Source: an uncultured Candidatus Saccharibacteria bacterium (lineage in GTDB: Bacteria; Patescibacteriota; Minisyncoccia; Phycocordibacterales; DATDWN01). Taken from it: a stretch of DNA of 64,000 nt. Positions 2,688 to 62,795 of the stretch are shown here, one piece after another. Position 1 is the first letter of the stretch. Every line of letters starts with the position of its first letter. The position numbers and the translations under genes were made by a program. Where the stretch lies: assembly GCA_964469605.1 (NCBI GenBank), contig CAYXZA010000001.1, positions 71,274 to 135,273 of the forward strand, written 5' to 3'. Below the pieces are notes generated by a model. That model worked only from the letters and a program-made list of their open reading frames with translations. It did no database searches and had not been told where the DNA came from.

Positions 2688-3152
2688 ATGAGCACAAAAA
2701 AAGAACTAGTTTGGACAGCACCTTTGTATATGTTTATACCGAAAACAACAGATTGGTATTGGATAGTTGGAATCATATCAGCAACAATCGCAATAGTCTC
2801 AACAATGCTAGGAAACATCACCTTCTCTATACTTATAATAATAGGTGTAATTGTTACCTTTTTAAATGCACATAAAGAACCTAAAACTGTAACCATAACA
2901 ATAAACTCCAAAGGAATAAAAATAGATGACAAGATATATTTTTTTGATGAACTAGAATCATTTTGGGTTGAAAATAACAATCTCTACCCTAGAATCATCT
3001 TTAAACAAAATAGAATAATATTCCCTTTTATGAAAGTTCTAATACACTCAGAGGATGCTGATGAAGCAAGAGAGTTTTTACGAGAATATTTACCAGAAGA
3101 GTATATGAATGAAAATATAATTGAAAAAATATTTATATATTTTGGTTTTTAA
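2688..3152 (+). CDS. hypothetical membrane protein
   Basis: 154-aa ORF with two or three hydrophobic helices near the N-terminus. Confidence 0.4.
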   Translation: MSTKKELVWTAPLYMFIPKTTDWYWIVGIISATIAIVSTMLGNITFSILIIIGVIVTFLNAHKEPKTVTITINSKGIKIDDKIYFFDELESFWVENNNLYPRIIFKQNRIIFPFMKVLIHSEDADEAREFLREYLPEEYMNENIIEKIFIYFGF

Positions 3153-3178
3153 GTATAAATATGCTAGTTTGTAAATAT

Positions 3179-3253
3179 GTCCTCGTAGTTTAATGGATAG
3201 AACACGAGTTTGCGGAACTCGTGATTGAGGTTCGATTCCTCACGAGGGCACCA
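3179..3253 (+). tRNA. tRNA-Arg, anticodon GCG by my reading of the loop, with encoded CCA
   Basis: Cloverleaf folds: acceptor GTCCTCG/CGAGGGC, D-stem GTTT/GAAC, anticodon stem CGAGT/ACTCG with loop TTGCGGA, T-arm TGAGG-TTCGATT-CCTCA, discriminator A, then CCA. Confidence 0.7.
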
Positions 3254-3307
3254 AGAATTTTACTAATCTGTTTTTTGTCTATATTAAAAACTACAACACT
3301 GAAAAAA

Positions 3308-4327
3308 CTATTTAGATGAGATATATTTTTTATTTAGATTGTATGCCATATATCCAATACCAATAATCAGGAACCCTACAATAATAAGTGCAATTGGCCA
3401 CCCAATTGAATCAACAAAATATTTTGATGTAATTTTTACCATATGAGCCATTAAGAACAAAGCACCAAAAGTTAGCATTGACTGACTTTTTAAATACACA
3501 CTTCCGTAAAAAGCAGCAAAAATGAAAGCAATGAAAATAAGATCAAAAAATCCTCCAATAAATATACCAGAACCCAAAACAATCAATGTTCCTAATCCAA
3601 ACAGTGCATTCCTTACTGCTTTCTTCTCTTTTTCATCAGAAGCATCAATGGCTACTGATACTAATTGATAACCACGAGCAATTAATATGTAAGAAAAACC
3701 TAAAAGCATTGCTGCCCATTTAATTATATTTGAACTATAATAATCAAGAGTAAAAACTTTTATCACCAACAAATAGTAAGCCCACGAAGCAAAACCTATC
3801 GTAATTAAAACAAGGATATTCTTTTTACTTACTAAAAGTGCATAACCAAAAATAACAGATAACACTAGTGCTGTGTAAAATGTATAAGGCCATGTAAATG
3901 ATATATTTGCCTCACTTATAATAACATCCACACTTAACGGAGCAAGTACACATGAAATAGTAAACATTACTTGAGAAATTACTCTCTGATGAGGTTTGTT
4001 GAGGAAAAAAGCACCGATGAAAGTTATCAAAGAAATTCCTAAAGTAACTAAGACACGACCCATAAATCCAATTTCAATCCAGTTTTGAACAACAAGTATT
4101 GCAACACCACCAAGTATAATAATTGCACCAATACCATAAAATGTATTAATAATATTTTTTGATGATTCTTCTTTATGCGAAATATCTACTGTGTTTGAAT
4201 TAAAAACCGGAGATGTATTGACCGATGGTGTAACTACATTATTAGCCAACGACAGCAAATCTTCTTTTGAAATCTTACCTGTGGCTATTTGCCCCTCTAT
4301 AAAATTAACAATTTGTTGTTTATCCAT
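3308..4327 (-). CDS. polytopic membrane protein, hypothetical
   Basis: 339-aa ORF with a soluble N-terminal ~60 aa followed by at least eight hydrophobic segments. Confidence 0.5.
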   Translation of the reverse strand: MDKQQIVNFIEGQIATGKISKEDLLSLANNVVTPSVNTSPVFNSNTVDISHKEESSKNIINTFYGIGAIIILGGVAILVVQNWIEIGFMGRVLVTLGISLITFIGAFFLNKPHQRVISQVMFTISCVLAPLSVDVIISEANISFTWPYTFYTALVLSVIFGYALLVSKKNILVLITIGFASWAYYLLVIKVFTLDYYSSNIIKWAAMLLGFSYILIARGYQLVSVAIDASDEKEKKAVRNALFGLGTLIVLGSGIFIGGFFDLIFIAFIFAAFYGSVYLKSQSMLTFGALFLMAHMVKITSKYFVDSIGWPIALIIVGFLIIGIGYMAYNLNKKYISSK

Positions 4328-8183: not shown

Positions 8184-8672
8184 TCAAATTGTAAAAACTA
8201 CTATCCCAAAAGCAGTTGATACATTTAAAGACTCTTTCTGTCCTGCCATTTCTATTTCAACAACATTGTCACTTTTGGATAAAATATCTTTTGATAGTCC
8301 CCTAACCTCATTACCTAGTATAAAAATCATTTTTTTCTCCTTTTTCAAATCCCTATAACTTATAGAGTCCTCATTTTGTTCAATAGAGTAAATTTTAAAA
8401 CCTTCTTTTTTTAATTTCTCGATAACCTTAAAAACATTTTCTTTTGACCAAGAAACTGAAAATTGGCCACCTAAAGCCGTTTTAGATATTTCTTTCCTTG
8501 GTCTACCAAACTTGTCGAGCGGTGCTGGTGTATAACCAGATATATAAATATGTTTTAATCCTCTACCATCAGATGTTCTAAAAATAGAGCCAACATTGTG
8601 AGCACTTCTTATGTTGTGCAGGACAACCCTTATATCAGATTCTTCTTTTATGATTTTTCGTTTGCTTTTCAT
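8184..8672 (-). CDS. SpoU/TrmH-family RNA 2'-O-methyltransferase
   Basis: 'VVLHNIRSAHNVGSIFRTSDGRG..HIYISGYTP' and C-terminal 'LNVSTAFGIVVF' motifs of the SPOUT class. Confidence 0.75.
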   Translation of the reverse strand: MKSKRKIIKEESDIRVVLHNIRSAHNVGSIFRTSDGRGLKHIYISGYTPAPLDKFGRPRKEISKTALGGQFSVSWSKENVFKVIEKLKKEGFKIYSIEQNEDSISYRDLKKEKKMIFILGNEVRGLSKDILSKSDNVVEIEMAGQKESLNVSTAFGIVVFTI

Positions 8673-8696
8673 TTGGCTATAATATACAATCTATTT

Positions 8697-9044
8697 ATGA
8701 CATTATCAATATTTCCAAATTTATTTACCTACTCTATTTTTGCAATAACACTTATTAGAATTTTTTCAGCTTTTATTTTTATTAAAATAGCATTAAGAAG
8801 AAAAAATAAAATTATCGGATGGATGTTTATTCCAGAAATCTTAATCTCACTTTTTCTTTTAGTTGGTCTCTATACTCAAATAGCAGTTATACTGATTTGG
8901 TTTTTAGTTATGTTTGAGAAATATTTTGATAAAAAAGAAGGTAAAAAAGAAACTAGCGGAGAAACACTTGCTCTTTTGGAAGTTTGTCTTATAGCCACAC
9001 TGTTTTTAGGTCCAGGAGCATTTGCTTTTGATCTGCCACTTTAA
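8697..9044 (+). CDS. small polytopic membrane protein, hypothetical
   Basis: Hydrophobic helices throughout. Start trimmed to an internal Met to avoid an antisense overlap with the SpoU gene. Confidence 0.35.
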   Translation: MTLSIFPNLFTYSIFAITLIRIFSAFIFIKIALRRKNKIIGWMFIPEILISLFLLVGLYTQIAVILIWFLVMFEKYFDKKEGKKETSGETLALLEVCLIATLFLGPGAFAFDLPL

Positions 9045-9095
9045 AAACAAAAAATTTGAATAAATATCTTTTTTCTGATATATTTTTCTAGTATT

Positions 9096-9168
9096 GCCCT
9101 TGTAGCTCAGTCGGTAGAGCAGCTCCCTTTTAAGGAGATGGTCGCAGGTTCGATTCCTGCCAGGGGCA
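9096..9168 (+). tRNA. tRNA-Lys, anticodon TTT, no encoded CCA
   Basis: Near-identical architecture to canonical tRNA-Lys: GCCCTTG-TA-GCTCAGTCGGTAGAGC-A-GCTCC-CTTTTAA-GGAGA-TGGTC-GCAGGTTCGATTCCTGC-CAGGGGC-A. Confidence 0.85.
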
Positions 9169-9544
9169 CAAAATTTTCGAAGTAAATTTTGTGCAACTGA
9201 GCAAAGCATAGCTTTGCGAGCAGGAATCGAAGGAATATGCGGTTTACAAAGTCAGCAGACTTTGTCGCAGATTCCAGTTTTATTTTTTATTAAGTGACGA
9301 CGAAATAAAAAATAAAAAGATTCCTGCCAGGGGCACAGAAAACGAAGTTTTATGTGACACTGGAGAAAAGTGATGTTATCACTTTTCGTCAGGAATCGAA
9401 CAGATTTCCGGTTGACGAAGTCAGCAGACTTTGTCGGAAATCTGGTGCCTAGAAAATTTTAGTTTGACGAAACTAAAATTTTCGAGGGAGATTCCTGCCA
9501 GGGGCACAAAATCTTCAAAGTAAATTTTGTCCAATTAAAAAACC
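9152..9544 (+). repeat. three direct copies of the tRNA-Lys 3' end with two ~170-bp hairpin-rich intervening units
   Basis: 'gattcctgccaggggcaca' occurs at 9152-9170 (within the tRNA), 9319-9337 and 9490-9508. Copies 1 and 3 share ~55 nt including the downstream 'aaat(t/c)ttc(g/a)aagtaaattttgt(g/c)caa'. The intervening units contain conserved nested hairpins (GAC(A/G)AAGTCAGCAGACTTTGTC). Confidence 0.8.
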
Positions 9545-10249
9545 TTAAATCTCCAAGATTAACTTTTCGAGCAAAACTTCACTTTCCCCTTCACCGCTTC
9601 TGGTCATATCTGATATTTCAACTATTTTATCTGAAAGCAGTAAAAGCTCTTCTTTTTTCCAATTTTTAGCAAACAAAATAGCATTTTTATAAGCAAAAGG
9701 AGAAATGGAAAACTCTTTTGGATCTTTTGTGTTTAAACAAAGAAGTATTGTTTTAATTTGCCAAAAAAGAACACCCAATATCTCTTCAGCTTCGACACCA
9801 AAAGAGGTGGCTTTAAAAAAGTTTATCCATAAGTTTTTTTTATCTTTTCTGCCGAGATCATTTGCAAGAGTAAAAACATTAAAAAACTCTTTACTCTCTT
9901 TTTTATCGTAAACTGTAACTTTTTCAAAAAACTTATCCAGAGATTTTCTATCAGAGTCATTTATTTTATCTTCTATAATAAAGAAAATATGTTCACTTTC
10001 TTTGATAGAATTTAAAAGAACATTATCTTTAATATCTATATTTTTTAAAAACACAGAATCTAAAACAACTATATATTTTTTTGAAAATAGTCCTTGAGAA
10101 TTTATCAGCTCTAAAAGTAAATCTAAACTAAAATTATCATCAGTTATCTTGAAAACTTCCGCATCCGGTTTTTTCTTTAACAAATTCTCTGTATTTTTCC
10201 TTACAGCTTCTGTTGTTTTTAACCTATCCCCTAAAAATACATATATCAT
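9545..10249 (-). CDS. holA: DNA polymerase III delta-subunit-like protein
   Basis: N-terminus 'MIYVFLGDRLKT...' and 'KKYIVVLD' fit the HolA pattern (iYlfyGed..; rlvvv). Short form. Confidence 0.45.
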   Translation of the reverse strand: MIYVFLGDRLKTTEAVRKNTENLLKKKPDAEVFKITDDNFSLDLLLELINSQGLFSKKYIVVLDSVFLKNIDIKDNVLLNSIKESEHIFFIIEDKINDSDRKSLDKFFEKVTVYDKKESKEFFNVFTLANDLGRKDKKNLWINFFKATSFGVEAEEILGVLFWQIKTILLCLNTKDPKEFSISPFAYKNAILFAKNWKKEELLLLSDKIVEISDMTRSGEGESEVLLEKLILEI

Positions 10250-42211: not shown

Positions 42212-44167
42212 TTAAAAGTCTATTTTAAAATAACTACCAGTGTTGAAAGATATTAAATTTTTCTTTTCATATTCTTTCAAATCCTCATCTATCTCCTCTA
42301 TAAACCTAGATGGACTGTTTATTTTTTTCTCTCCAAATATCACCCTGGTTTGACTATGACAAAGGTAAAGCTTTTTCTTTGCTCTGGTTATGGCAACATA
42401 ACAGAGTCTCCTTTCCTCTTCCTCATCTTTTTTATCCTTTTGTTTTCCAAATCTTTGGTGAGGAAAAAGATCTTCTTCAAGTCCTGATATGAAAACCGTA
42501 TCAAATTCCAAACCTTTACTTCCGTGAACTGTCATAAGTTTAACCCCTTCTTTTTCTTTTTTCATCTCATCTTCATCTGTCAGCAAGGAAACTTCTGTTA
42601 AAAACAATTCCATACCATCTTCACCAAAAGTAGAGTCATAATATGTTCCAAGAGAAACAAGCTCCATTATATTCTCTAACCTCTCAAAATCCTCCTCTTT
42701 TTTGCTCTCTTGAAGTTCTTTTTTTAATCCAGATATCTCTATTGTGTATCTTATGGAGTCTGAAACTTTATTTGTTTTAATAAAATCAGCTATTTTTTCA
42801 AGTATTTTTCTAAAATTCTCTATTTTTTCTTGTGTTTTAAATGGTAGTAAATTTTCTTCTCCGCTTTTTATTTTTAAAATACTAGTCTTGCCTATTCCTC
42901 TTGCGGGAACATTTACAACTCTTATAAAATCACCAAAATTATCTTTATTTAAAGATGCTTTGATATAGGAAATACAATCTTTAACCTCTTTTCTTTCAAA
43001 AAATTTTGTCCCAATCATTTGATAAGAAACTGCATAGGCTAAAAATGCCTCTTCAAGTATTCGCGATTGAAAATTTGCTCTGTATAAAACAGCAATTTCA
43101 CTAGGTTTTTTGCCAGCTTCTATGAGTTCTTTTGACTTTTGAGCAATAAAATGAGCTTCATCGGCTTCTGTAAAACCCTCAAATATGCTTATTTTCTCAC
43201 CTTCATTGTTTAATGTGAAAAGATTTTTATCTATTCTCTGGTTATTTTTTTGTATGATTTGGTTTGATGCAGATATGATGTTTTTTGTTGATCTGTAATT
43301 TTGTTCAAGTAGTATGACTTTGCATTTTTCGTATTTTTTTTCAAAAAGAAGCATATTTTTAATATCAGCACCTCTCCAAGAATAAATATTTTGATCACTA
43401 TCCCCTACAACACAAATATTTTTATATTTTTCTGCTATAAGTGAGACTATTTTATCTTGAACTTTGTTTGTATCTTGATATTCATCTACACTTATATACC
43501 TAAATCTTTCTTGATATTTATCTAAAACATCCCTGTTTTTTTCTAGCAGTTTAAGTGTTATCAAAAGTAAATCGTCAAAATCCAAAGACCCTTCTTTTTT
43601 CTTTGTTTTTTCATATATATCCCAAACTTTTTTAGTTAAATCTATTGAAAAATCATTAAAACTCTTGTTTGAAAACTCTTCTAGATCAACTCCAAGGCTT
43701 TTTTCAGAGCTTATTATTGCTGAAACTTTATCTAGGTGTTCTTTTGGGTCATAAGAGAGCTCTTCAAGTGCCTTTTTTATAATTTTTTTTGAGTCAGATT
43801 TGTCTAATATACTAAAATGTCTGGGTATTTTTAAAATATCAGCATTTTCTTTAAGTATCAAAACTCCCAATGAGTGAAATGTTTTAATTGTTGGAAATGT
43901 CTTTTGTGACTTTAAAAAAAGTTCCTTGTTTTCTAAAAGCATACTCTCTATTCTATTTTTCATTTCTTTACCAGCTTTGTTTGTAAAAGTTATAGCTAGT
44001 ATTTCAGATGGAGAAACTCCATTTTCAATAATCTTCATTATTCTGTGGGTTATGGTTTTTGTTTTCCCAGCTCCGGCTCCGGCAACTAAAAGCAGTGGTC
44101 CCTCTGTGCAAAGGACAGCTTCTTTTTGTTTTTCATTCAATCCTTCTAAAAATTTACTATTCATCAC
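42212..44167 (-). CDS. pcrA: ATP-dependent DNA helicase, UvrD/PcrA/Rep family
   Basis: Motif I 'LLLVAGAGAGKTKTITHRI', 'ILAITFTNKA', 'VDEYQDTN', 'VGDSDQNIYSWRGA'; 651 aa. Confidence 0.85.
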   Translation of the reverse strand: MMNSKFLEGLNEKQKEAVLCTEGPLLLVAGAGAGKTKTITHRIMKIIENGVSPSEILAITFTNKAGKEMKNRIESMLLENKELFLKSQKTFPTIKTFHSLGVLILKENADILKIPRHFSILDKSDSKKIIKKALEELSYDPKEHLDKVSAIISSEKSLGVDLEEFSNKSFNDFSIDLTKKVWDIYEKTKKKEGSLDFDDLLLITLKLLEKNRDVLDKYQERFRYISVDEYQDTNKVQDKIVSLIAEKYKNICVVGDSDQNIYSWRGADIKNMLLFEKKYEKCKVILLEQNYRSTKNIISASNQIIQKNNQRIDKNLFTLNNEGEKISIFEGFTEADEAHFIAQKSKELIEAGKKPSEIAVLYRANFQSRILEEAFLAYAVSYQMIGTKFFERKEVKDCISYIKASLNKDNFGDFIRVVNVPARGIGKTSILKIKSGEENLLPFKTQEKIENFRKILEKIADFIKTNKVSDSIRYTIEISGLKKELQESKKEEDFERLENIMELVSLGTYYDSTFGEDGMELFLTEVSLLTDEDEMKKEKEGVKLMTVHGSKGLEFDTVFISGLEEDLFPHQRFGKQKDKKDEEEERRLCYVAITRAKKKLYLCHSQTRVIFGEKKINSPSRFIEEIDEDLKEYEKKNLISFNTGSYFKIDF

Positions 44168-44380
44168 AGTATTTTAACATAGTATTTTTATTTTTAATTA
44201 TAATTATAAATAATAATAAAAATGTTTGGTTAAAAATACTCTATAAATAATTGACATGTTGTCATGTATTATTGTATAATATGTGTGTTATTAGTAGCCA
44301 GTGGCAAAAGCCTTAAATTTCCAAGCTGGTATCTATAACAAGCCCTTTGCTACGGCATTGGGTTCTCTACGGAGAAAAAA

Positions 44381-44989
44381 ATGACACTTTTTGTGATAGT
44401 CACGGCGGTGATCTGCTCGTGGTATTACTTCTCAGTTGTGGTGCCTCGGCGTAAGGAACGAGAGAGGTTCGACAAGGCTCTCGGGGCTTACAATACCGAG
44501 CGGGATCGGGTTGAGGCTCTGCCAAGACTCGACACTCGTTGGCTGATGCGTGTACCGGGGGAAATAATGGACAAGAATTCGATTTGCCGCTCCTACGGGA
44601 CGCGATATGATCGGATTTTCATCGTCGATGAATGCGGTAACGGGTGGGTTGGATTGGTCACCCCGGAAATTCTCAAAGACTTAACAGCTGGAGAGTATAT
44701 CCGTTGTAACTACTTCATTCCCTTTCGGGGTGATGGTGAATCCAGTGCTGGAAAACCAGTGACTGTCGACAACCAGATAATCTATGTTTATCCTATCTGG
44801 ATGAATGAGGGAGTCAACACCCTAGACTGGAGTCTGTGGGCACGAATCGAGAAAAACTTTTACAAGCATTTGCAGCAATGGAACTATCAGTCTGGTCTCG
44901 GCGAGCTCAACGGGCATATGCAGGAGTTTTGCGAGAAGCGGGATCATTTCAACAGACTCGCTGCTGTGGTGGGGATTGAGGTGAAGTAA
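44381..44989 (+). CDS. foreign-composition (GC-rich) membrane-anchored protein of unknown function
   Basis: ~52% GC against the ~30% background. N-terminal TM 'LFVIVTAVICSWYYFSVVV'. GC-rich codons (CGC, CTC, GGG). Confidence 0.55.
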   Translation: MTLFVIVTAVICSWYYFSVVVPRRKERERFDKALGAYNTERDRVEALPRLDTRWLMRVPGEIMDKNSICRSYGTRYDRIFIVDECGNGWVGLVTPEILKDLTAGEYIRCNYFIPFRGDGESSAGKPVTVDNQIIYVYPIWMNEGVNTLDWSLWARIEKNFYKHLQQWNYQSGLGELNGHMQEFCEKRDHFNRLAAVVGIEVK

Positions 44990-45507
44990 TGAAAATTATC
45001 TCAATTCTCACTGCTCTGTTTCTTGTTGGTTGTGGTGGTAAGCAAAAAAAAGCTGAAAGCCACAAAGACACACCGATCAAAACAACAATCCCAGCACAGG
45101 TGGTCCATGAGGTGAAGAAGGTGGGGCCTGGATTCTGGAAAGAGTTCGGGGTCTCTAGTTCTGTGTATCGCCCTGATGTTGAACATGGAAGTGTATATGG
45201 TGTAGATGGATCGTTACTTGCCTTCAAGACCATTGATGGTGTGGTCTGGTTCGGAAACTTCGAGCCACGAGACAACAAACCTCCGCTCGAAACCCGCAAG
45301 GTGTACCTTGTGTGCATAAGTGGCAACCCTGCAAAAGGTTGTGGTTACGCAATGCGCAACTTGGCCGTCGCTCCGCCACAATGTGTGCTGGAGGAAAGAG
45401 TCGTGGGTTGGAAGGAAGCCCGAGGCTTCCTGGAGCCCAGGACTCCAAATTCAGAACTCTTTTGGCTGAATATCGAGGACTTTCTTCGATCTAGAGAATG
45501 GAAGTAG
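44989..45507 (+). CDS. foreign-composition lipoprotein of unknown function
   Basis: Lipobox 'ALFLVGCGG'. The ATG overlaps the TAA of the upstream ORF. Same GC-rich composition. Confidence 0.55.
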   Translation: MKIISILTALFLVGCGGKQKKAESHKDTPIKTTIPAQVVHEVKKVGPGFWKEFGVSSSVYRPDVEHGSVYGVDGSLLAFKTIDGVVWFGNFEPRDNKPPLETRKVYLVCISGNPAKGCGYAMRNLAVAPPQCVLEERVVGWKEARGFLEPRTPNSELFWLNIEDFLRSREWK

Positions 45508-45541
45508 AGTGTAAGTAAAAGTCTCGCTACTATGCGAGCAT

Positions 45542-45571
45542 AGCCCGCTCTTCGGAGCGGGCTGTTTTTTT
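45542..45571 (+). terminator. GC-rich intrinsic terminator ending the foreign cassette
   Basis: AGCCCGCTC-ttcg-GAGCGGGCT followed by T8. Confidence 0.65.
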
Positions 45572-45740
45572 AAATAAAGACTTTCAGTTTAATTTTGTAT
45601 TTTACAGTTTGCTGTTGACAATCTCATTTGGTTTTGGTAATATATAGAAGTCAGATTGTTTAGTTTCGCCCGAAAGGCGAATAATTTTTTACCAAAATTC
45701 AAGTAAATTTTAAAAATATTTAACAGTTAAATTATATATT

Positions 45741-46907
45741 ATGTTTGATCTAAAAATAATAAATTCAGTAATGACTCAACTTCAAGAGGAAAGAGGTATT
45801 CCAAAAGAGAAAACACTTGAAGCTATAGAGATGGCTCTTGCTACTGCTTATAGAAAAGAATATGGCAAAAAAGGCCAGATAATAAAGGCTAAATTTGATC
45901 TTAATTCTGGAAAAACAGAGTTTTTTCAAGTGAAAATCGTTGTTGATGAAACAATTGTTTTGATGGATTTTCCAGATGGTGAAGCTCTTCCGGAGGGTAA
46001 GGTTTTGTATAACCCAGAACATCATATGATGATCTCTGATGCTAAATTTATAAAAAAAGATGCTTCTTTGGGTGAAGAAATAGTCTTCCCTCTTGAAGAT
46101 AAGGCAGATTTTGGAAGAATTGCTGCTCAAACTGCAAAGCAAATAATTATGCAAAAGATAAGAGAAGCTGAAAAAGTTTCTGTCTTTGGTGAATATGGCA
46201 AAAGAGAAGGTGAAATTGTCTCTGGAACAGTTCAAAATATTGAGAGAGGAACGGTTTTTATTGATATGGGTAGAGCAACAGGAATACTGTCTTATGATGA
46301 ACAAATACCAGGAGAAAGATTCTCACAAGGTGAAAGAGTTAAAGCATACTTGTTTCAAGTTGATGAGTCTCCAAAAGGTGTGTTTTTGAAACTATCAAGA
46401 TCACATCCTAGATTTTTGGAAAAACTTTTTGAAGCAGAAGCACCGGAGCTTGTAAACGGCACCGTGATTATAAAATCTGTTGCAAGAGAAGCTGGTTCAA
46501 GAAGTAAAGTGGCTGTTTTTGCTTCCGATTCTCATATAGACCCTGTTGGCTCTCTAGTTGGTCAAAAAGGTGTTAGAGTTTCAACTGTTATGTCAGAGTT
46601 AGGTGGTGAAAAAATAGATGTAATAGAATACAGTGAAGATCCTACAAAATTTATAGCAGAAGCACTCTCTCCTGCTAGAATATTAAATATTGATGTAAAT
46701 GAAGATGATAAAATTGCAAAAGTTGAAGTTTCAGAAGATCAACAGTCTCTTGCTATCGGAAAAGGTGGTCAAAATGTTCGTCTTGCTGCAAAATTGACAG
46801 GTTACAAGATAGATATATCATCTTCTGGTGCATCTTCTGAGGATTCAGAAGATGAAGGTTTTATAGATTTAAAGACTGCTATGGAAAATACTGATTTTTC
46901 AGAGTAA
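45741..46907 (+). CDS. nusA: transcription termination/antitermination factor NusA
   Basis: N-terminal 'MFDLKIINSVMTQLQEERGIP', an S1 domain, two KH domains ('IGKGGQNVRLAAKLTGYKIDI'), and an acidic C-terminus. Confidence 0.9.
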   Translation: MFDLKIINSVMTQLQEERGIPKEKTLEAIEMALATAYRKEYGKKGQIIKAKFDLNSGKTEFFQVKIVVDETIVLMDFPDGEALPEGKVLYNPEHHMMISDAKFIKKDASLGEEIVFPLEDKADFGRIAAQTAKQIIMQKIREAEKVSVFGEYGKREGEIVSGTVQNIERGTVFIDMGRATGILSYDEQIPGERFSQGERVKAYLFQVDESPKGVFLKLSRSHPRFLEKLFEAEAPELVNGTVIIKSVAREAGSRSKVAVFASDSHIDPVGSLVGQKGVRVSTVMSELGGEKIDVIEYSEDPTKFIAEALSPARILNIDVNEDDKIAKVEVSEDQQSLAIGKGGQNVRLAAKLTGYKIDISSSGASSEDSEDEGFIDLKTAMENTDFSE

Positions 46908-50899: not shown

Positions 50900-52441
50900 T
50901 TGCAAACCTATATGTCACTTAAAATAGTTTTAGCCCTGCTTTCTGGGGCAACAGTTATAGGTGTGCTTTTGGGATATTATTTAAGAGTTATTATATCTTT
51001 GGGTAAAAAAGGTTCTATGGAGCTTGAATTAAAGCAAATGGAACTTTCTGCAAAAAATAGAGAAAAAGAGATAATCAATGAGGCAGAAGAAAAGGCTGAA
51101 AAAATACTATCTGAGGCTCGCCTTGAGATAAAAGAGAAAGAAGAAAAAAACAAAAAAACAGAGGAAAGGCTTATTAAAAAAGAGGAATTTCTAGATAATA
51201 GACAACTTGATATAGACAAGGAAGTTGAAAATATCAAATCTAAGATATTGGAAATAAAGAAAATCAGAGAAGATGCTGATTTGATTTTGCTTGAAAGAAA
51301 AAATCTACTTGAAAAGGTGGCTTCCCTAACCAAAGATCAGGCAAAAGAGGAGATTTTGAAAACAGTAGAAAAGGAGTATGAAACTGATATATTAAACAGA
51401 ATAAATAAACTTGAGAAAAATGGAGAGGAAAGACTTTTAAGAAAAGCACAAGATATTTTAGCTACAACCATACAAAGACTTTCAAATTCTGTATCTGCTG
51501 ATATGTTAACTACTGCTGTATCTATATCTTCTGATGAAATAAAAGGAAAGATTATAGGAAAAGAAGGTAGAAATATAAAAGCTTTTGAGAGAGTTACTGG
51601 TGTTGAGCTTATTGTAGATGATACTCCTGGATTTATAACAATATCATCTTTTGATCCTGTTAGAAGACAGGTAGCAAAACTTGCACTTGAAAAACTTATA
51701 GCCGATGGGAGAATACAACCAGCAAAGATAGAAGAGATAGCTACCAAAGCCGAACAAGAAATAGGAAAAATAATAAAAGAAAAAGGAGATGAAGCTGTTT
51801 ACGAATGTGGAATACTAAATCTTGATCCAAAACTTGTATCTATAGTTGGAAGACTTCATTTTAGGACAAGTTATGGTCAAAATGTTTTGGCTCACTCTGT
51901 TGAGATGGCTCATATTGCGGGGATGTTGGCACAAGAGCTTGGTGCAAATGTCTCTGTGGCTAAGGCTGGTGCTTTGCTCCATGATATAGGAAAAGCTCTT
52001 GATCATGAGGTTTCTGGAACTCATGTTGAAATAGGCAGAAGGATACTTCAAAAATTTAATGTAGATGAGGAGGTGATAAAAGCTATGCAGGCACACCACG
52101 AAGAGTATCCTTATGAAACAGTAGAGTCAATCATAGTTCAATGTGCCGATGCTATCTCAGGTTCTCGTCCGGGAGCTAGAAGAGATTCTGTTGAAAACTA
52201 CTTAAAGAGACTTGCAGATTTGGAATCCGTTGCAAATTCATTTAAAGGGGTTGAAAAATCTTATGCCCTTCAAGCTGGTAGAGAAATAAGAGTTTTTGTA
52301 ACACCGAGCGAAGTTTCTGATTTGGAAGCTAAAAATATAGCATTTGAGATGGCTAGAAGAATAGAAGATGAGCTGAAATACCCAGGAGAGATAAAAGTAA
52401 ATGTTATTAGGGAAAACAGGGTTATTGAATATGCAAAATAA
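50900..52441 (+). CDS. rny: ribonuclease Y
   Basis: N-terminal TM, coiled coil, KH 'IIGKEGRNIKAFERVTG', HD 'HSVEMAHIAGMLAQELG...LHDIGK'. Confidence 0.9.
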   Translation: MQTYMSLKIVLALLSGATVIGVLLGYYLRVIISLGKKGSMELELKQMELSAKNREKEIINEAEEKAEKILSEARLEIKEKEEKNKKTEERLIKKEEFLDNRQLDIDKEVENIKSKILEIKKIREDADLILLERKNLLEKVASLTKDQAKEEILKTVEKEYETDILNRINKLEKNGEERLLRKAQDILATTIQRLSNSVSADMLTTAVSISSDEIKGKIIGKEGRNIKAFERVTGVELIVDDTPGFITISSFDPVRRQVAKLALEKLIADGRIQPAKIEEIATKAEQEIGKIIKEKGDEAVYECGILNLDPKLVSIVGRLHFRTSYGQNVLAHSVEMAHIAGMLAQELGANVSVAKAGALLHDIGKALDHEVSGTHVEIGRRILQKFNVDEEVIKAMQAHHEEYPYETVESIIVQCADAISGSRPGARRDSVENYLKRLADLESVANSFKGVEKSYALQAGREIRVFVTPSEVSDLEAKNIAFEMARRIEDELKYPGEIKVNVIRENRVIEYAK

Positions 52442-52452
52442 TAAACCTATCC

Positions 52453-52551
52453 CGTTAAAAGTATAATTTTAGAGCACCGATAAATTTTTGCTAAAATTTT
52501 CCTCGTGCTTGGTAGAGTTACTTGAAAGTCTCTAAAATTATACTTTTACGG
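52453..52551 (-). repeat. palindrome-nested conserved element, copy E
   Basis: Core 52467-52537 (divergent copy). Inverted arms 'ccgttaaaagtataatttt' / 'aaaattatacttttacgg'. Directly 3' of rny. Confidence 0.7.
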
Positions 52552-52716
52552 TAATATAATTAAGATAGGGTATTATTTTATATTTTTCTTCAATTAAAAT
52601 TAAAATATTAAAAAGTAAAAATATAATAGAGTCAACATTTGCCATAGAAAAAAGCTTTATATATAATGTTATTATAGTAGATAAGCTATAAATTATTAGT
52701 TTTAATCAGTTTAAAT

Positions 52717-52989
52717 ATGAATAAAGCATCGATAGTAGATGAGGTTCATAAAAAACTTGGCGGAACAAAAGTTCAAGCTGAGGAAGTTGTAGATACTGTT
52801 ATAGATCTTATAGTAGGAACTTTAAAAAAAGGAGACGAAGTTTCTATTGCTGGTTTAGGTATCTTTTCAACAAAAACAAGAGCTGCTAGACAGGCTAGAA
52901 ATCCTAGAACAGGACAAATGGTTTCTGTTCCAGAGATGAAAGTGCCAAAGTTTAGACCAGCAAAGGCCTTTAAAGAGGCGGTTAAATAA
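52717..52989 (+). CDS. hup: DNA-binding protein HU
   Basis: 'MNKASIVDEV...GDEVSIAGLGIFSTKTRAARQARNPRTGQMVSVPEMKVPKFRPAKAFKEAV'; 90 aa. Confidence 0.9.
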   Translation: MNKASIVDEVHKKLGGTKVQAEEVVDTVIDLIVGTLKKGDEVSIAGLGIFSTKTRAARQARNPRTGQMVSVPEMKVPKFRPAKAFKEAVK

Positions 52990-53082
52990 TCGCTTTACCT
53001 TTAAAACAAGAAACACCACTAAGGTGTTTTTTGTTGTCGTAAAAAAGTCCCGAAGCCGAAGCTCCGAGACCTTTGTTGTGAC

Positions 53083-53937
53083 TTACGTCGCTGATTGTTC
53101 TTGAACCGATTGTTTTGCGAGCCAACGTGAGAGATACCATGCTCCGCAGAGCGCGATTCCTACGCCGACCCACTGAACGGGCGTGAGATGTTCGCCAAGC
53201 ATGACACTTGCGCCAAGGATGACCGCAGGGGTTTCTCCTTGGGCAAGGACACTCGCTTCCGTCGTGGGCAAATTCTCGAACGCCATCAGATTCGCAATCC
53301 AATAGAGGAATCCTCCGACGAATGCGAATCCGAGAACGAGCATAATCAGTTTCGGTTCGGCGATGGCTGACCACGACGCACCAGCACTCATCACGAGGCC
53401 GAGCGTTCCCATGCCGATGCAGGCATAGAAACACTTTTGGAGCGAGTTCCCCTTCGCGCGAGCAAAAAATTCGTAGATGATTCCGTTCATGATGGTTCCG
53501 AACAGCGTCCATCCGAATCCTGCCCACTGAAAATGTCCGCCCCAACGAGCCATCACTACACCGCCGAGCATCAACACCAGTCCAATGATGGACGCTGGAG
53601 AAATTCGCCGGCCTAAGAAAGCGCCGATCACGAGGTTCACCAGCGGGGTCGCGGTAATGATGATGATTGTCGGTCCCACGCCCCAGTGCCGAATTCCCTC
53701 GAAAAGTCCGAGTGTGGCGAACGGCATGGTCAGTGCAATAAGATACGTATACTTGTCCACACGTCCGACGACTCCACGAAGTCCGATGAGTGCCATTCCG
53801 GCAGTTAGGAATCCGCGAAAGACCATCAGTTGCGTGGGCGTGAACACACTTAGAACGTTGACGAAAGGCAGGGCCAACCCTGCCGTTAGCCAAATGCCCA
53901 TGACCCCGAAGAGTCCCAGCATGGTTTTACGATGCAT
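53083..53937 (-). CDS. EamA/DMT-superfamily transporter, foreign GC-rich composition
   Basis: Ten hydrophobic helices in two 5-TM halves. ~58% GC. The alternative 303-aa Arg-rich frame (52982..53893) was rejected. Confidence 0.65.
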   Translation of the reverse strand: MHRKTMLGLFGVMGIWLTAGLALPFVNVLSVFTPTQLMVFRGFLTAGMALIGLRGVVGRVDKYTYLIALTMPFATLGLFEGIRHWGVGPTIIIITATPLVNLVIGAFLGRRISPASIIGLVLMLGGVVMARWGGHFQWAGFGWTLFGTIMNGIIYEFFARAKGNSLQKCFYACIGMGTLGLVMSAGASWSAIAEPKLIMLVLGFAFVGGFLYWIANLMAFENLPTTEASVLAQGETPAVILGASVMLGEHLTPVQWVGVGIALCGAWYLSRWLAKQSVQEQSAT

Positions 53938-54121
53938 ACAAAATCCTTTCTGATTGGAAAAATCGTTTTTTCCTAAATATATTATATCATTTTATAATAT
54001 ATTGTCAATGATTATAATCAAAATATTGCTATTTTATAACTATAAATATGATTAAAATTTATTTATATAAATTTTGTTGATATATATTGACAAAAAATTA
54101 ACTATAAAATACAATATATTT

Positions 54122-54895
54122 ATGAATAATGAAAATTTTGATCTATCAAAATCACTAGAGTTAATAGGTTTTAGTCAAAAAGAAGTTTTGGTGTATTTGT
54201 CTTTACTTTCTTTAGGAAAAGGAACTGTTTCTCAAATAGCAAGAAAAGCCGGTATAAATAGGCCTAGTGGTTATCATATTTTAACTTCTCTAGAGTTAAA
54301 AGGGGTTATAAATGCTTCTGGTAAAGAGCCGAAAAAGGAATATGTTGCCAATTCTCCAGACGAAATAGAAAAACTCTTATTGAAAAAAAGAGATGATTAT
54401 GAAAATTATATAAAAGAAGCTAGAAAAATTATTCCCGAACTAAAGTCTATGCACAATATAAACAACAGGCCAAAGATATCTTTTTATGAAGGTAAAGATG
54501 GTTTACAGAAAGTCTATGAGGATACTTTAACTTCAAAAGAGGATATTTTGGCTTATGCTAGTGTTGAAGACGTTCACAGTACCCTACCAAATTATTTTCC
54601 TCTTTATTACAAAAGAAGGGCTAGAAAAAATATAAATATCAGAGCTATATTTCCAGGTTCCGAAGATGCAAAAAAATTAAAAAAATTTGATCAAGAGGAA
54701 AAAAGACAATCAGTACTTGTTCCTATTGATAAATTTAGTTTTCATCCGGAAATAAATATTTATGATAACAAGGTTATGATAGCTTCTTGGAGGGAAAAAC
54801 TCGGAATTATTATTGAAAGTTCTGAAATAGCAGATGCAATGAAAAAAGTTTTTGAGTTGGCTTGGCTAGGTGCAAAAGGGATTGAGGAGAAATAA
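54122..54895 (+). CDS. TrmB-like HTH transcriptional regulator (paralog 1)
   Basis: N-terminal winged helix 'LIGFSQKEVLVYLSLLSLGKGTVSQIARKAGINRPSGYHILTSLELKGVI'. Start set at the internal Met. Confidence 0.5.
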   Translation: MNNENFDLSKSLELIGFSQKEVLVYLSLLSLGKGTVSQIARKAGINRPSGYHILTSLELKGVINASGKEPKKEYVANSPDEIEKLLLKKRDDYENYIKEARKIIPELKSMHNINNRPKISFYEGKDGLQKVYEDTLTSKEDILAYASVEDVHSTLPNYFPLYYKRRARKNINIRAIFPGSEDAKKLKKFDQEEKRQSVLVPIDKFSFHPEINIYDNKVMIASWREKLGIIIESSEIADAMKKVFELAWLGAKGIEEK

Positions 54896-55042
54896 GGTTG
54901 TTTCTATTTTTTAAATTTCTCAAATATGTATTTTCACTGTGCGGGATATTAAATGACGTTAGAACCTGTTTTCTAGGGTCTAACTCCATGTTCTATATCC
55001 CAAGTTTGTCTCTAACAGAAGTGAAAGTCAATTAAAACAAAT

Positions 55043-55068
55043 GGGCACCCTCCTGTTGAGAAGTGCCC
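55043..55068. terminator. intrinsic terminator hairpin after HD-hydrolase gene
   Basis: GGGCAC-cctcctgttgagaa-GTGCCC flanked by A/T runs. Confidence 0.45.
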
Positions 55069-55087
55069 ATTTTACACCTATCTACTA

Positions 55088-55723
55088 TTACACCCGAAGA
55101 TGAGCAAGTGACCGAGCAATGTTTGCTCTGGCTTGCGTTTCATACTTGTTGCGGAAGGATTGCGTCGAGTAGATATTCGGTCGATCTAGAAACGCCTTCA
55201 GGATCGCCAAACGTCCGGCAATAAACTGATCTTCCGGTACCCACTCATACTCCTTACGTACTTGCTTCTCATATTCATCGAATCTTTCCTCAGGTTGACC
55301 TAGAATTGAGAGATCGATGTCAACAATAAGTTGAACATCTGAATCGGTGGGAGTCGCTGAATGCTTCGTTGCTATGATGAGATTTGCCACCGATTGTCCG
55401 AGGTTGTCGGGCAACGAAGCATTTCGCACCATTTCCATGGCGAGTGCTGCACTTCGCTCCTCACTGTCCTTGGTTTTGGTATCGTAGATTGCGTCATGAT
55501 ACCAGAGAGCCAATTCAACAGTATCAGGATTTGTTGCGAGGTGTCGGCCACGCTCGAGTTCGTCGAGGCAGAGTCTGATGTGTTGGAGTGTGTGGTACAC
55601 TCGGTGCGGTTCAGAGTATCGCACAACAAGCTCGTTGTAGACCACGCTTGCGTCTCCTTGCGCACCGAGGTGTTGCCACAACGCTTGCCATTGTTGTTCA
55701 TTTCGATTTAGCATTGTAAGCAT
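55088..55723 (-). CDS. HD-domain metal-dependent phosphohydrolase (small ~200-aa family), GC-rich
   Basis: 'YHTLQHIRLCL...WYHDAIYD' His/Asp metal ligands. ~50% GC. Confidence 0.6.
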   Translation of the reverse strand: MLTMLNRNEQQWQALWQHLGAQGDASVVYNELVVRYSEPHRVYHTLQHIRLCLDELERGRHLATNPDTVELALWYHDAIYDTKTKDSEERSAALAMEMVRNASLPDNLGQSVANLIIATKHSATPTDSDVQLIVDIDLSILGQPEERFDEYEKQVRKEYEWVPEDQFIAGRLAILKAFLDRPNIYSTQSFRNKYETQARANIARSLAHLRV

Positions 55724-56204
55724 CCTTCAGTTTCTCAAACACTGGTTCGGGGAGATAATTCTTCACTATTGTCGCCCATCCTTCAGGACCTATCAACCTC
55801 TTCACCATGCTTGAACTGACTTCGGCAATTCCACGTGGTGGCATCAGAAAAACTGTTGTGATGCCAGAGTTTAAGTCGCCGTTGATATTTCTCATCACCC
55901 GCTCGTATTCGTAGTCACTTTCGGTTCTGATGCCACGAAGTATGAATTGTGCACCTACCGATTGAGCGTAGGTGATAAGAAAATGATTGGTGAAACTACT
56001 GACTTCGACATTCGGAAACTGTTTTGTTGATTGTCGAAGCATTTCAAGTCGCTCATCAACCGAGAACATACAGTGCTTCTCTGGATTAATACCAATTGTT
56101 ACGAAAAGTTTGTCGAACAAAGCCGACCCTTGCTTGATCATCCAAATATGACCGACAGTTGGTGGATCAAATGTTCCAGCATAAACCGATGTCTTCTTAG
56201 TCAT
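55698..56204 (-). CDS. coaD: phosphopantetheine adenylyltransferase
   Basis: 'SVYAGTFDPPTVGHIWMI' (T/HxGH nucleotidyltransferase) and 'ILRGIRTESDYEYE'. Start trimmed to the Met before the motif. GC-rich. Confidence 0.8.
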   Translation of the reverse strand: MTKKTSVYAGTFDPPTVGHIWMIKQGSALFDKLFVTIGINPEKHCMFSVDERLEMLRQSTKQFPNVEVSSFTNHFLITYAQSVGAQFILRGIRTESDYEYERVMRNINGDLNSGITTVFLMPPRGIAEVSSSMVKRLIGPEGWATIVKNYLPEPVFEKLKDAYNAKSK

Positions 56205-62632: not shown

Positions 62633-62703
62633 GCGGGTATGGTTTAGTGGTAGAACACTTCCTTGCCAAGGAAGAGACGCGGTTTCGATTACCGCTACCC
62701 GCA
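62633..62703 (+). tRNA. tRNA-Gly, anticodon GCC
   Basis: GCGGGTA-TG-GTTTAGTGGTAGAAC-ACTTCC-TTGCCAA-GGAAGA-GAC-GCGGTTTCGATTACCGC-TACCCGC-A. Confidence 0.85.
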
Positions 62704-62722
62704 CAGTTGATAAGCAAGATTG

Positions 62723-62795
62723 TGTGTCCGCTAGGACTTGAACCTAGATGGGCGGTTCCGAAGACCGCTACTCTATCCAATTGAGCTACGGACAC
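62723..62795 (-). tRNA. tRNA-Arg, anticodon TCG
   Basis: Reverse complement GTGTCCG-TA-GCTCAATTGGATAGAGT-A-GCGGT-CTTCGGA-ACCGC-CCATC-TAGGTTCAAGTCCTAG-CGGACAC-A. Confidence 0.8.

Follow-up and report, generated by a model that had tools for sequence, protein, structure and literature searches.

Why the 3' end of a lysine tRNA gene should be present in three copies, with hairpin-rich non-coding DNA between them, is the question raised by a stretch of 64,000 nucleotides (hereafter, the window) from an uncultured Candidatus Saccharibacteria bacterium (contig CAYXZA010000001.1); coordinates given below without a locus label are positions in this 64-kb window. An earlier note on this stretch, made from the letters and a list of open reading frames (ORFs) only, considered the repeats to be attL/attR-type scars of serial integration and excision at tRNA-Lys, or a miniature array of att sites. 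The analysis presented here leads to another answer. Region 9170–9536 is tentatively interpreted as two tandem members, and the shortened start of a third, of a family of structured RNA modules located in tRNA 3' trailers of the Candidate Phyla Radiation (CPR)/Patescibacteria and Elusimicrobia, which may act as tRNA-linked switches or processing modules. The tripled tail is most likely an intrinsic structural element of these modules and not an att scar.

Organization of the array at tRNA-Lys

The gene of tRNA-Lys(UUU) occupies positions 9096–9169 (+) (ARAGORN; Rfam tRNA model, 72.6 bits), has the discriminator base A at 9168 and does not encode CCA. The 19-nt tail of the tRNA, GATTCCTGCCAGGGGCACA, was found on the + strand in three exact copies starting at 9152, 9319 and 9490, with none expected by chance, and the start-to-start spacing of 167 and 171 nt agrees with the two tandem units of ~170 bp, both without coding capacity, that the earlier note had recognized. 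Tail copy 1 (9152–9170) is the tRNA's own sequence and includes the 3' part of the T-loop, the 3' strands of the T-stem and of the acceptor stem, the discriminator and CA. All further parts of the array described below are located on the same strand.

Unit A begins with the trailer hairpin s1-A (9170–9190), which has an AAAATTT/AAATTTT stem and a CGAAG-type loop; the loop motif (A)CGAAGU is found at the same position in other genomes. It is followed by anti-acceptor A, TGTGCAACTG (9190–9199), the complement of CAGGGGCACA with two A·G mismatches; by the hairpin hp2-A, GCAAAGC-ata-GCTTTGC (9201–9217), at the point where the complements of the acceptor and of the T-stem meet; and by the T-arm complement X'-A, GCAGGAATCGAA (9220–9231), which is complementary to tRNA positions 54–65 and covaries with the T-arm across tRNAs. 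Domain A (9232–9319) consists of a nested hairpin with an AGCA loop (9232–9275) and an AT-rich hairpin with a GACG loop (9278–9317). Tail copy 2 (9319–9337) closes the unit by pairing with X'-A and anti-acceptor A.

Unit B is represented by the hairpin s1-B, AAAAC-gaa-GTTTT (9339–9351), anti-acceptor B, TGTGACACTGG (9353–9363), the hairpin hp2-B, GAAAAGTGAT-gtt-ATCACTTTTC (9365–9387), and X'-B, CAGGAATCGAAC (9390–9401), a 12-nt complement of GTTCGATTCCTG of the true tRNA. Domain B (9401–9490) contains a hairpin with an AGCA loop (9402–9443), the junction GGTGCCTAG, a hairpin with a GACG loop (9448–9487) and the junction CGAGGGAG, and tail copy 3 (9490–9508) closes the unit. Then follows a shortened or decayed third repeat (9509–9536), which includes an s1-A-like hairpin and a degenerate anti-acceptor, TTTTGTCCAATT. 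Copies 1 and 3 together with their downstream sequences, for which ~55 common nucleotides had been claimed, actually share ~45 nt with 93% identity (9152–9196 versus 9490–9534). Similar partial repeats after the last tail copy were found at the homologous loci L010, L018, L069, L073 and L080 (here and below, L-numbers are labels of the collected homologous loci).

Most structural details read from the letters were confirmed. Motif AAGTCAGCAGACTTTGTC is present in each unit (9249 and 9418; 0.07 occurrences expected by chance) within an outer stem, the sequence of which differs between the units while complementarity is kept (GGAATaTGCG/CGCAgATTCC versus AGATTTCCG/CGGAAATCT), and the sequence (G/T)CAGGAATCGAA(G/C), found in both units, is a 12-nt perfect complement of the T-loop and the T-stem 3' strand. 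The second hairpin of each unit, also different in sequence between the units, belongs to the same domain. The earlier note did not mention the anti-acceptor segments, complementary to the acceptor 3' strand, or the hp2 hairpins, located between the anti-acceptor and the T-arm complement and just upstream of the latter. The folded region is far more stable than its shuffled versions (z = −11). None of the other five tRNA genes in the window has a T-arm complement downstream.

Distribution and architecture of the module family

A scan of one genome per species for TTCGATTCCTGC followed, after a gap of 50–80 nt, by CAGGAATCGAA revealed at least 120 loci with a T-arm complement 50–80 nt behind a tRNA gene, nearly all of them in Patescibacteria (Saccharibacteria, Paceibacterota and others) or Elusimicrobia. 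Among the matches listed, there were 110 loci in which the match starts in the T-arm of a single tRNA, mostly of the Arg and Lys type, and the complement does not lie in a convergent tRNA. The same architecture was found behind at least 130 tRNA genes in ~120 genomes of CPR/Patescibacteria and Elusimicrobia, from which 133 units were collected.

The order of the parts is as follows: the tRNA, the s1 trailer hairpin, the anti-acceptor, hp2, X', the two-hairpin domain and the copy of the tRNA tail, that is, of the T-stem 3' strand, the acceptor 3' strand and the discriminator. The s1 loop often has the conserved sequence (A)CGAAGU(GA), and the hairpin is sometimes terminator-like; hp2, found in 94 of the 133 units, has a stem of 9 bp, the loop of which is often CUGC or UGGGAG. 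The tail copy has at most two mismatches in 63 of 110 units, while only GAT(T)..CCTGC(C) and a few further bases are present in the remainder; a full acceptor copy is absent from 45 of the 110. Usually the copy covers the sequence from G57/A58 to ~3 nt past the discriminator. An extension of 10–87 nt into a repeat of the trailer was seen in 10 of 59 units, and the shortened third repeat of the window is of the same kind. In units lacking hp2 or X' (L080, L054 and L013), a short anti-trailer is still paired to a copy of the trailer. A set of Elusimicrobia species has kept orthologous units.

At least three classes of domains were found within one and the same frame, and these classes are not tied to tRNA identity: domains of class 1 are present behind tRNAs for Arg, Lys, Gly, Val and Ala. 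In assembly CAYIHM01, the modules behind tRNA-Arg-CCU (L028) and tRNA-Lys (L043) have a block of 118 nt in common with one mismatch, which starts at X', includes the domain and reaches CCTGCC, while the trailer hairpin, the hp2 stem and the acceptor copies are locus-specific, which indicates recent copying or gene conversion between the modules of different tRNAs.

ARAGORN calls of 'Stop (tta)' (UUA anticodon) were obtained at loci L072 and L093 for tRNAs with tRNA-Lys-like 3' ends, both carrying modules. The 3' end of the L072 tRNA is near-identical to that of tRNA-Lys(UUU) of a neighbouring species. These calls may reflect a register error of ARAGORN or a genuine variant.

The units of the window as family members

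Covariance model R1 was built from the domain only, using ten units of other genomes, and contained neither window sequence nor tRNA-derived segments. When applied to the 64-kb window, it recovered unit B (9401–9490 (+), 48.1 bits, E = 3.5e-9) and, as a full-length match, unit A (9232–9319 (+), 32.8 bits, E = 1.2e-5), and nothing credible was found in the remainder of the window, where the next best match had E ~3. Across 100 other loci (720 kb), the model found 34 domains, all of which adjoin tRNA genes, including those for Val, Ala and Gly.

The closest units to domain A are those of L123, L093 and L042, which follow tRNA-Lys. In unit B, a first hairpin of the Lys type is joined to a second hairpin and junctions of the Arg type (GGTGCCYAG ... 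CGAGGGAGAT). Accordingly, units A and B have different affinities and are not simple recent duplicates of one another.

Covariation with the tRNA and evidence for RNA structure

Other tRNAs incidentally present in the fetched loci, with different T-arms and acceptors, gave 15 distinct T-arm 12-mers (Pro, Ser, Cys, His, Gly, Val, as well as variant Lys and Arg), each accompanied by a matching X'. In 14 of 22 units behind a variant T-arm, the tail copy has at most one mismatch to the tail of its own tRNA. A module is located behind ~13 of the 96 non-Arg, non-Lys tRNAs in the fetched loci, that is, roughly one in seven.

Minimum free energy (MFE) folds of all 20 units folded, as well as of both window units, contain an acceptor-like stem, hp2 and a T-like stem around two hairpins. 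When unit B of the window is aligned to ten units linked to tRNA-Arg (L064, L024, L086, L116 and others; class 1b), 27 of 29 pairs have compensatory changes, and the hp2 consensus of 46 sequences has them in all eight pairs. Among the 34 domains aligned by the model, 28 of 29 pairs covary. The proportion of paired cells is 90.7% (59.5% in shuffles); the covariation score of 0.771 was reached in 0 of 500 shuffles, for which it is 0.219, and controls with slid partners do not exceed 0.13. Swaps of G-C to C-G are seen even between the close relatives L093 and L042.

The two strands are not equivalent. The sense (tRNA) strand folds more stably than the antisense strand in 39 of 43 units, on average by −7 kcal/mol (p = 3e-8); G·U pairs number 136 in the sense and 72 in the antisense folds of these 43 units, and the G·U to A·C ratio in the consensus helices is 60:28. 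Sense-strand folding and the excess of G·U pairs therefore point to RNA, or at least to a single-stranded form of the sense strand, and not to a duplex DNA site. Sequences of the loops (CGAAG, AGCA and GACG) and of the junctions (GGUGCCYAG and CGAGGGAGAU) are conserved across phyla.

Proposed function of the module

As read from the sequence, each anti-tail (the anti-acceptor together with X') may pair with either of two mutually exclusive partners, namely, the upstream tail, which is the 3' third of the tRNA or the spare tail of the previous unit, and the downstream spare tail. For the window, the predicted MFE of the full region is −182.6 kcal/mol versus −179.5 kcal/mol for the cloverleaf with separately folded units, within ~3 kcal/mol of each other in a calculation that ignores the tertiary structure and modifications of the tRNA and the kinetics of folding. 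The predicted full-region fold uses the upstream partners, and in it the acceptor and T arms of the tRNA would be lost once the anti-tail is included. Where tail copies have drifted (L045, L105 and L028), the anti-acceptor still matches the real tRNA, and it is likewise conserved in those units lacking a full acceptor copy that were read. From the choice between upstream and downstream partners and the retention of the anti-acceptor, we infer a co-transcribed module that would link the domain to the availability of the 3' third of the tRNA.

The following mechanism may be proposed. The modules would be transcribed on the tRNA strand, and pairing of the anti-tail with the downstream spare tail would close the domain into a three-way junction. 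Through the choice of partner, whether the domain is folded or occupied would be tied to how far the acceptor and T arms are available for RNase P, RNase Z and CCA maturation. Such a module would resemble a riboswitch or control processing, and two consecutive units, as at tRNA-Lys of the window, would form a relay. To our knowledge, no natural riboswitch gates tRNA maturation. Engineered riboswitch elements that make RNase P cleavage of pre-tRNA ligand-dependent in E. coli (PMC8925977) show that control of this kind is feasible.

Besides the limits of the energy calculation given above, a number of points weigh against the switch. The family, its anatomy, covariation, strand bias and competing pairings of near-equal predicted energies are demonstrated; transcription of the tRNA and the modules as one RNA, and any regulatory consequence, are what we infer. 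In 45 of 133 units, the anti-tail is separated from the tRNA by a terminator-like hairpin with a T-run, and one is present after the last tail copy in only 11 of 69; for co-transcription, about a third of the loci would therefore need read-through or a separate promoter. The occurrence of several domain classes per frame, untied to tRNA identity, makes a poor fit to a single ligand-sensing aptamer. The excess of Arg and Lys tRNAs among the loci is biased, because a single T-arm sequence served as the anchor of the main scan. A selfish cassette would account equally well for the signs of mobility or gene conversion, namely, the block shared by L028 and L043, turnover behind identical tRNAs and the difference between the window and its relative L004. 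Finally, class-1 domains were found divergently upstream of tRNA-Lys in L072 (4051–4138 (−)) and L087 (3879–3963 (+)), and these upstream domains fit no model considered, the trailer switch included.

The tRNA-Lys genes of L072 and L087 also carry downstream modules, and each upstream domain is preceded by a long hairpin that reaches the complement of the first bases of the tRNA.

In its most specific form, the interpretation is possible but doubtful: the modules would be natural devices gating the maturation of specific tRNAs, in which the predicted closing helix of a sensor domain competes with the acceptor and T arms for the anti-tail, with a relay in tandem arrays; or, equally unusual, they would be a mobile cassette without a protein gene, which would recognize tRNA tails by pairing of ~24 nt and regenerate both the guide and the target copy at each new tRNA.

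Alternative explanations

According to a somewhat unlikely alternative, the module is a tRNA-framed cassette for a small RNA. The anti-acceptor, hp2, X' and the tail copy would form a tRNA-like frame with a discriminator, from which RNase P and RNase Z, perhaps with the CCA-adding enzyme, would excise the domain as a stable RNA of ~120–170 nt, the tRNA itself supplying only the promoter and the processing logic. The uniform folds of all 20 units speak for such a frame, as do the 63 of 110 units in which the T-stem 3' strand, acceptor 3' strand and discriminator are copied up to ~3 nt past the discriminator, and the several domain classes per frame would be expected of a generic expression scaffold. 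Frames of this kind are processed, as is known for external guide sequences of RNase P, guide RNAs of tRNase Z and MALAT1-mascRNA. The modules share with these RNAs, and with the tRNA-like domain of transfer-messenger RNA (tmRNA), an acceptor-like helix on a T-like helix, an end at the discriminator and an embedded RNA. They differ in lacking a T-loop, in copying the neighbouring tRNA's own sequence and, in many cases, in the absence of an acceptor copy. Several observations speak against the cassette: 45 of 110 units lack the full acceptor copy, and those read keep the anti-acceptor; where the two tails are not the same, it is the tRNA, and not the copy, that the anti-acceptor matches; and X' retains 3–4 extra bases (CGAA) that pair only with the T-loop of the real tRNA. 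The T-loop and elbow of the frame are replaced by the domain, and only the genuine tRNA is called by ARAGORN and the Rfam tRNA and tmRNA models.

Also unlikely, and a little more so, though still a live rival, unlike plain att scars, is a non-autonomous mobile cassette targeting tRNA tails. It would be mobilized in trans or spread by gene conversion, with the anti-tail serving as a guide or pairing element; arrays would be built by repeated insertion beside any tail copy, and the structure would be kept for the propagation of the cassette itself. This is consistent with the near-identical 118-nt block with locus-specific flanks behind tRNA-Arg and tRNA-Lys of one genome, the greater similarity of domains within a genome than between loci (10 of 23 pairs reach about the 93rd percentile or higher), the different domain classes behind identical tRNA-Lys genes and the recent, 100% identical partial repeats in the arrays of L073, L069, L043, L055 and L080. 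The difference between the window and L004 and the breaks in the assemblies of relatives at this locus, described below, also agree with mobility.

Against it, no enzyme was found. The search for integrases proposed by the earlier note showed no integrase, reverse transcriptase or transposase recurring within ~3 kb of the 110 loci, the recurring neighbours of which are housekeeping genes; nor was such a gene found in the window, in which a tblastn search with XerD and lambda Int gave no match. In BLAST searches of phage and plasmid collections, only the tRNA was matched. Pattern scans of viral contigs gave chance matches in coding sequence, an inverted phage tRNA and one cellular-looking contig with an array (L135), and a metagenome scan for X' together with AGTCAGCAGACT gave one chance match in a CRP-like gene. 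Copies in the window are located only at the tRNA according to model R1, and the orthologous units kept across Elusimicrobia species also argue against mobility. Moreover, retargeting of guides of at least 20 nt to 15 T-arms needs a templated mechanism, and none is known.

The contig of L135 (IMGVR_UViG_3300033463_005745) is labelled as viral and ends in at least two class-1 units (2850–3319) matched to a T-arm of the TTCAAATCCCT type. The adjacent genes, judging by their translations, look cellular and are similar to those for a hexapeptide acetyltransferase, a GalE-like epimerase, cytidine deaminase and a GDSL-type lipase.

A neutral origin is very unlikely. The modules would in this case be by-products under no selection for function: palindromes centred on a terminator, enlarged through template switching at fold-backs and through unequal crossing-over between the repeated tails. 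At many loci, the tail, s1 and the anti-tail do form one long palindrome centred on a terminator-like hairpin, and the partial distal repeats of L010 and of the window tail resemble decaying duplicates. However, the loop and junction sequences are conserved across phyla, the excess of G·U pairs is strand-specific, hp2 is inserted at a fixed position, and a covariance model recognizes the domain in genomes distant from one another. Palindrome growth, like plain att scars, fits poorly.

The least probable reading, with hardly any likelihood left to it, is that of attL/attR-type scars of serial integration and excision by integrase-bearing elements at tRNA-Lys, as originally suggested, which is largely refuted and at best a partial description: it accounts for non-coding units between direct repeats that correspond to the tRNA 3' end and, as is typical of att sites, have their start in the T-loop, and for a locus that varies among relatives and in L004 has gained a small ORF with a weak match to a candidate defence model, but not for the failure to find an integrase in the window or at the 110 homologous loci, or copies in the viral, phage and plasmid collections searched, a 'cargo' between the repeats that is a structured domain conserved and covarying across phyla, an antisense tail that covaries with each tRNA and is no feature of att sites, repeats often running 10–87 nt into the trailer, or units that persist as orthologues across Elusimicrobia species.

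Comparison with known RNA families and elements

At the gathering score, Rfam 15 found only the tRNA model in the window and in 15 homologous loci, and permissive searches (E up to 5–10) of the window, L021 and L026 revealed nothing credible. Literature searches found no description of such a tRNA-appended element. The family is apparently uncatalogued in Rfam 15 and undescribed in the searchable literature.

A number of known candidates were considered and rejected. Small self-cleaving ribozymes are not represented, since the hammerhead core CUGANGA is absent on reading the units and there is no Rfam match. Guides of the box C/D or H/ACA type do not agree with the modules, because neither unit B nor the homologues read have conserved the CUGA that follows anti-acceptor A, and the substrate strand has no unpaired target nucleotide at a three-way junction. 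Arrays of the CRISPR or TIGR type were rejected on account of the ~170-nt period, the lack of a Cas or Tas-like gene nearby and the different architecture of TIGR (PMC12045711). An inverted pseudo-tRNA or a convergent tRNA is excluded by ARAGORN and Rfam, which find one tRNA per locus, and an amino-acid-specific aptamer by domain classes not tied to tRNA identity. Dispersed repeats of the REP or MITE type do not fit either, as R1 finds only two units in 64 kb, all 34 of its other matches adjoin tRNA genes and the flanks are tRNA-specific.

Several systems resemble the modules in part. With riboswitches they have in common a conserved junction domain closed by a P1-like helix supported by covariation; the 5' strand of this helix has an alternative partner in what would be the 'expression platform', namely, the acceptor and T arms of the tRNA, and near-isoenergetic folds are predicted. 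Some natural riboswitches are also arranged in tandem, as the modules are. Unlike riboswitches, however, the modules carry several unrelated-looking domain classes in one frame and are located downstream of the RNA that they would control, and as riboswitches they are putative.

REP/BIME/REPIN, BOX and MITE elements are, like the modules, non-coding, hairpin-rich, modular and present in tandem downstream of genes, their stems undergo compensatory changes, and any autonomous enzyme is encoded elsewhere. However, each represents one sequence dispersed genome-wide, whereas the flanks of the modules are specific to the adjacent tRNA and the window copies are found at one tRNA only. RNAs of guide-bearing elements, including the exon- and intron-binding sites (EBS/IBS) of group II introns, IS200/IS605, the IS110 bridge RNA, omega RNAs of TnpB and IscB and the tRNA-homing spacers of CRISPR-associated transposons (CAST), combine a scaffold with variable target-matching segments, as the modules do, and the target copy at the 3' end of a structured RNA is a common feature as well. 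The modules differ from them in that no protein gene was found in or near them, the ~24-nt complementarity is located in cis with the adjacent tRNA, and the scaffolds are unrelated (no Rfam match).

The attL/attR sites of tRNA islands and prophages, which are recognized by tyrosine integrases and run from the T-loop to the 3' end, are alike in the repeats of ~19–23 nt, the start in the T-loop, the possible tandem arrangement and the variable locus. In contrast to such elements, the modules have no integrase, their ~150-nt cargo covaries, the antisense tail is always present and matches its own tRNA, and the units, which persist as orthologues across species, were found on neither phages nor plasmids.

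Genomic context and related loci

As stated by the earlier note, no integrase gene is located nearby, and the neighbours are a gene of the DNA polymerase III delta-like (holA-like) protein and polA; a further neighbour is the gene of a small membrane protein (8697–9044). A promoter-like site, TTGAAT-17-TATATT with TG upstream, is located 12 nt before the tRNA (9056–9084 (+)); this is a consensus match with a frequency no higher than in shuffled sequence. No terminator-like site was found in the region 8600–10000. A 67-aa ORF (9006–9209 (−)), which runs antisense to tRNA-Lys and the first module and overlaps both, is almost certainly not a gene.

The closest available relative is represented by L004, the holA product of which has 83% amino acid identity, while tRNA-Lys is 100% identical. 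Directly after the tRNA of L004, counterparts of the first hairpin of unit B (s1-B), hp2 and the T-arm complement are located, and these are followed by a 169-aa ORF; a second tail copy is absent, and homology to the window returns only at the end of holA. The difference between L004 and the window at tRNA-Lys therefore shows that the locus is dynamic, and in this one close relative compared it is not a clean excision at the tail repeats.

The 169-aa ORF (L004:1341–1850, on the − strand of the locus, the same strand as tRNA-Lys) is located at the place of the modules. It belongs to no Pfam family and, over 49 residues, weakly resembles PDC-S19, a candidate defence model of PADLOC (E = 1.9e-4). 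Small variable genes seem to have a hot spot in the trailer of tRNA-Lys.

In three relatives with the membrane-protein gene (L129, L130 and L131), the contigs end ~60–80 nt past that gene, i.e., at the tRNA-Lys/module locus, which suggests that repeats or population heterogeneity break assemblies there.

The G+C content of the window is ~30%, and the genome of origin is of the Parcubacteria type (CPR). Segments 44001–46000 and 52001–56000 reach 0.38–0.42 against a background of ~0.30. The genes of tRNA-Gly(GCC) (+) and tRNA-Arg(UCG) (−) at 62633–62795 are convergent, tail to tail and 17 nt apart.

Significance of the module family

Repeated tRNA tails in CPR genomes should not be taken automatically for att sites of genomic islands, and they are a probable cause of breaks in metagenome assemblies at tRNA genes. 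The family is directly testable in cultivable Saccharibacteria. If it is as it appears, about one-seventh of the sampled non-Arg, non-Lys tRNA genes carry a conserved structured appendage that holds an antisense segment and a spare tRNA 3' end. This may be a new layer of control or processing for tRNAs in the most reduced free-standing bacterial genomes or, alternatively, a novel type of small RNA in a tRNA frame or a mobile cassette that encodes no protein. If the modules do gate maturation, they would be the first natural 'tRNA-maturation switch', widespread in CPR bacteria.

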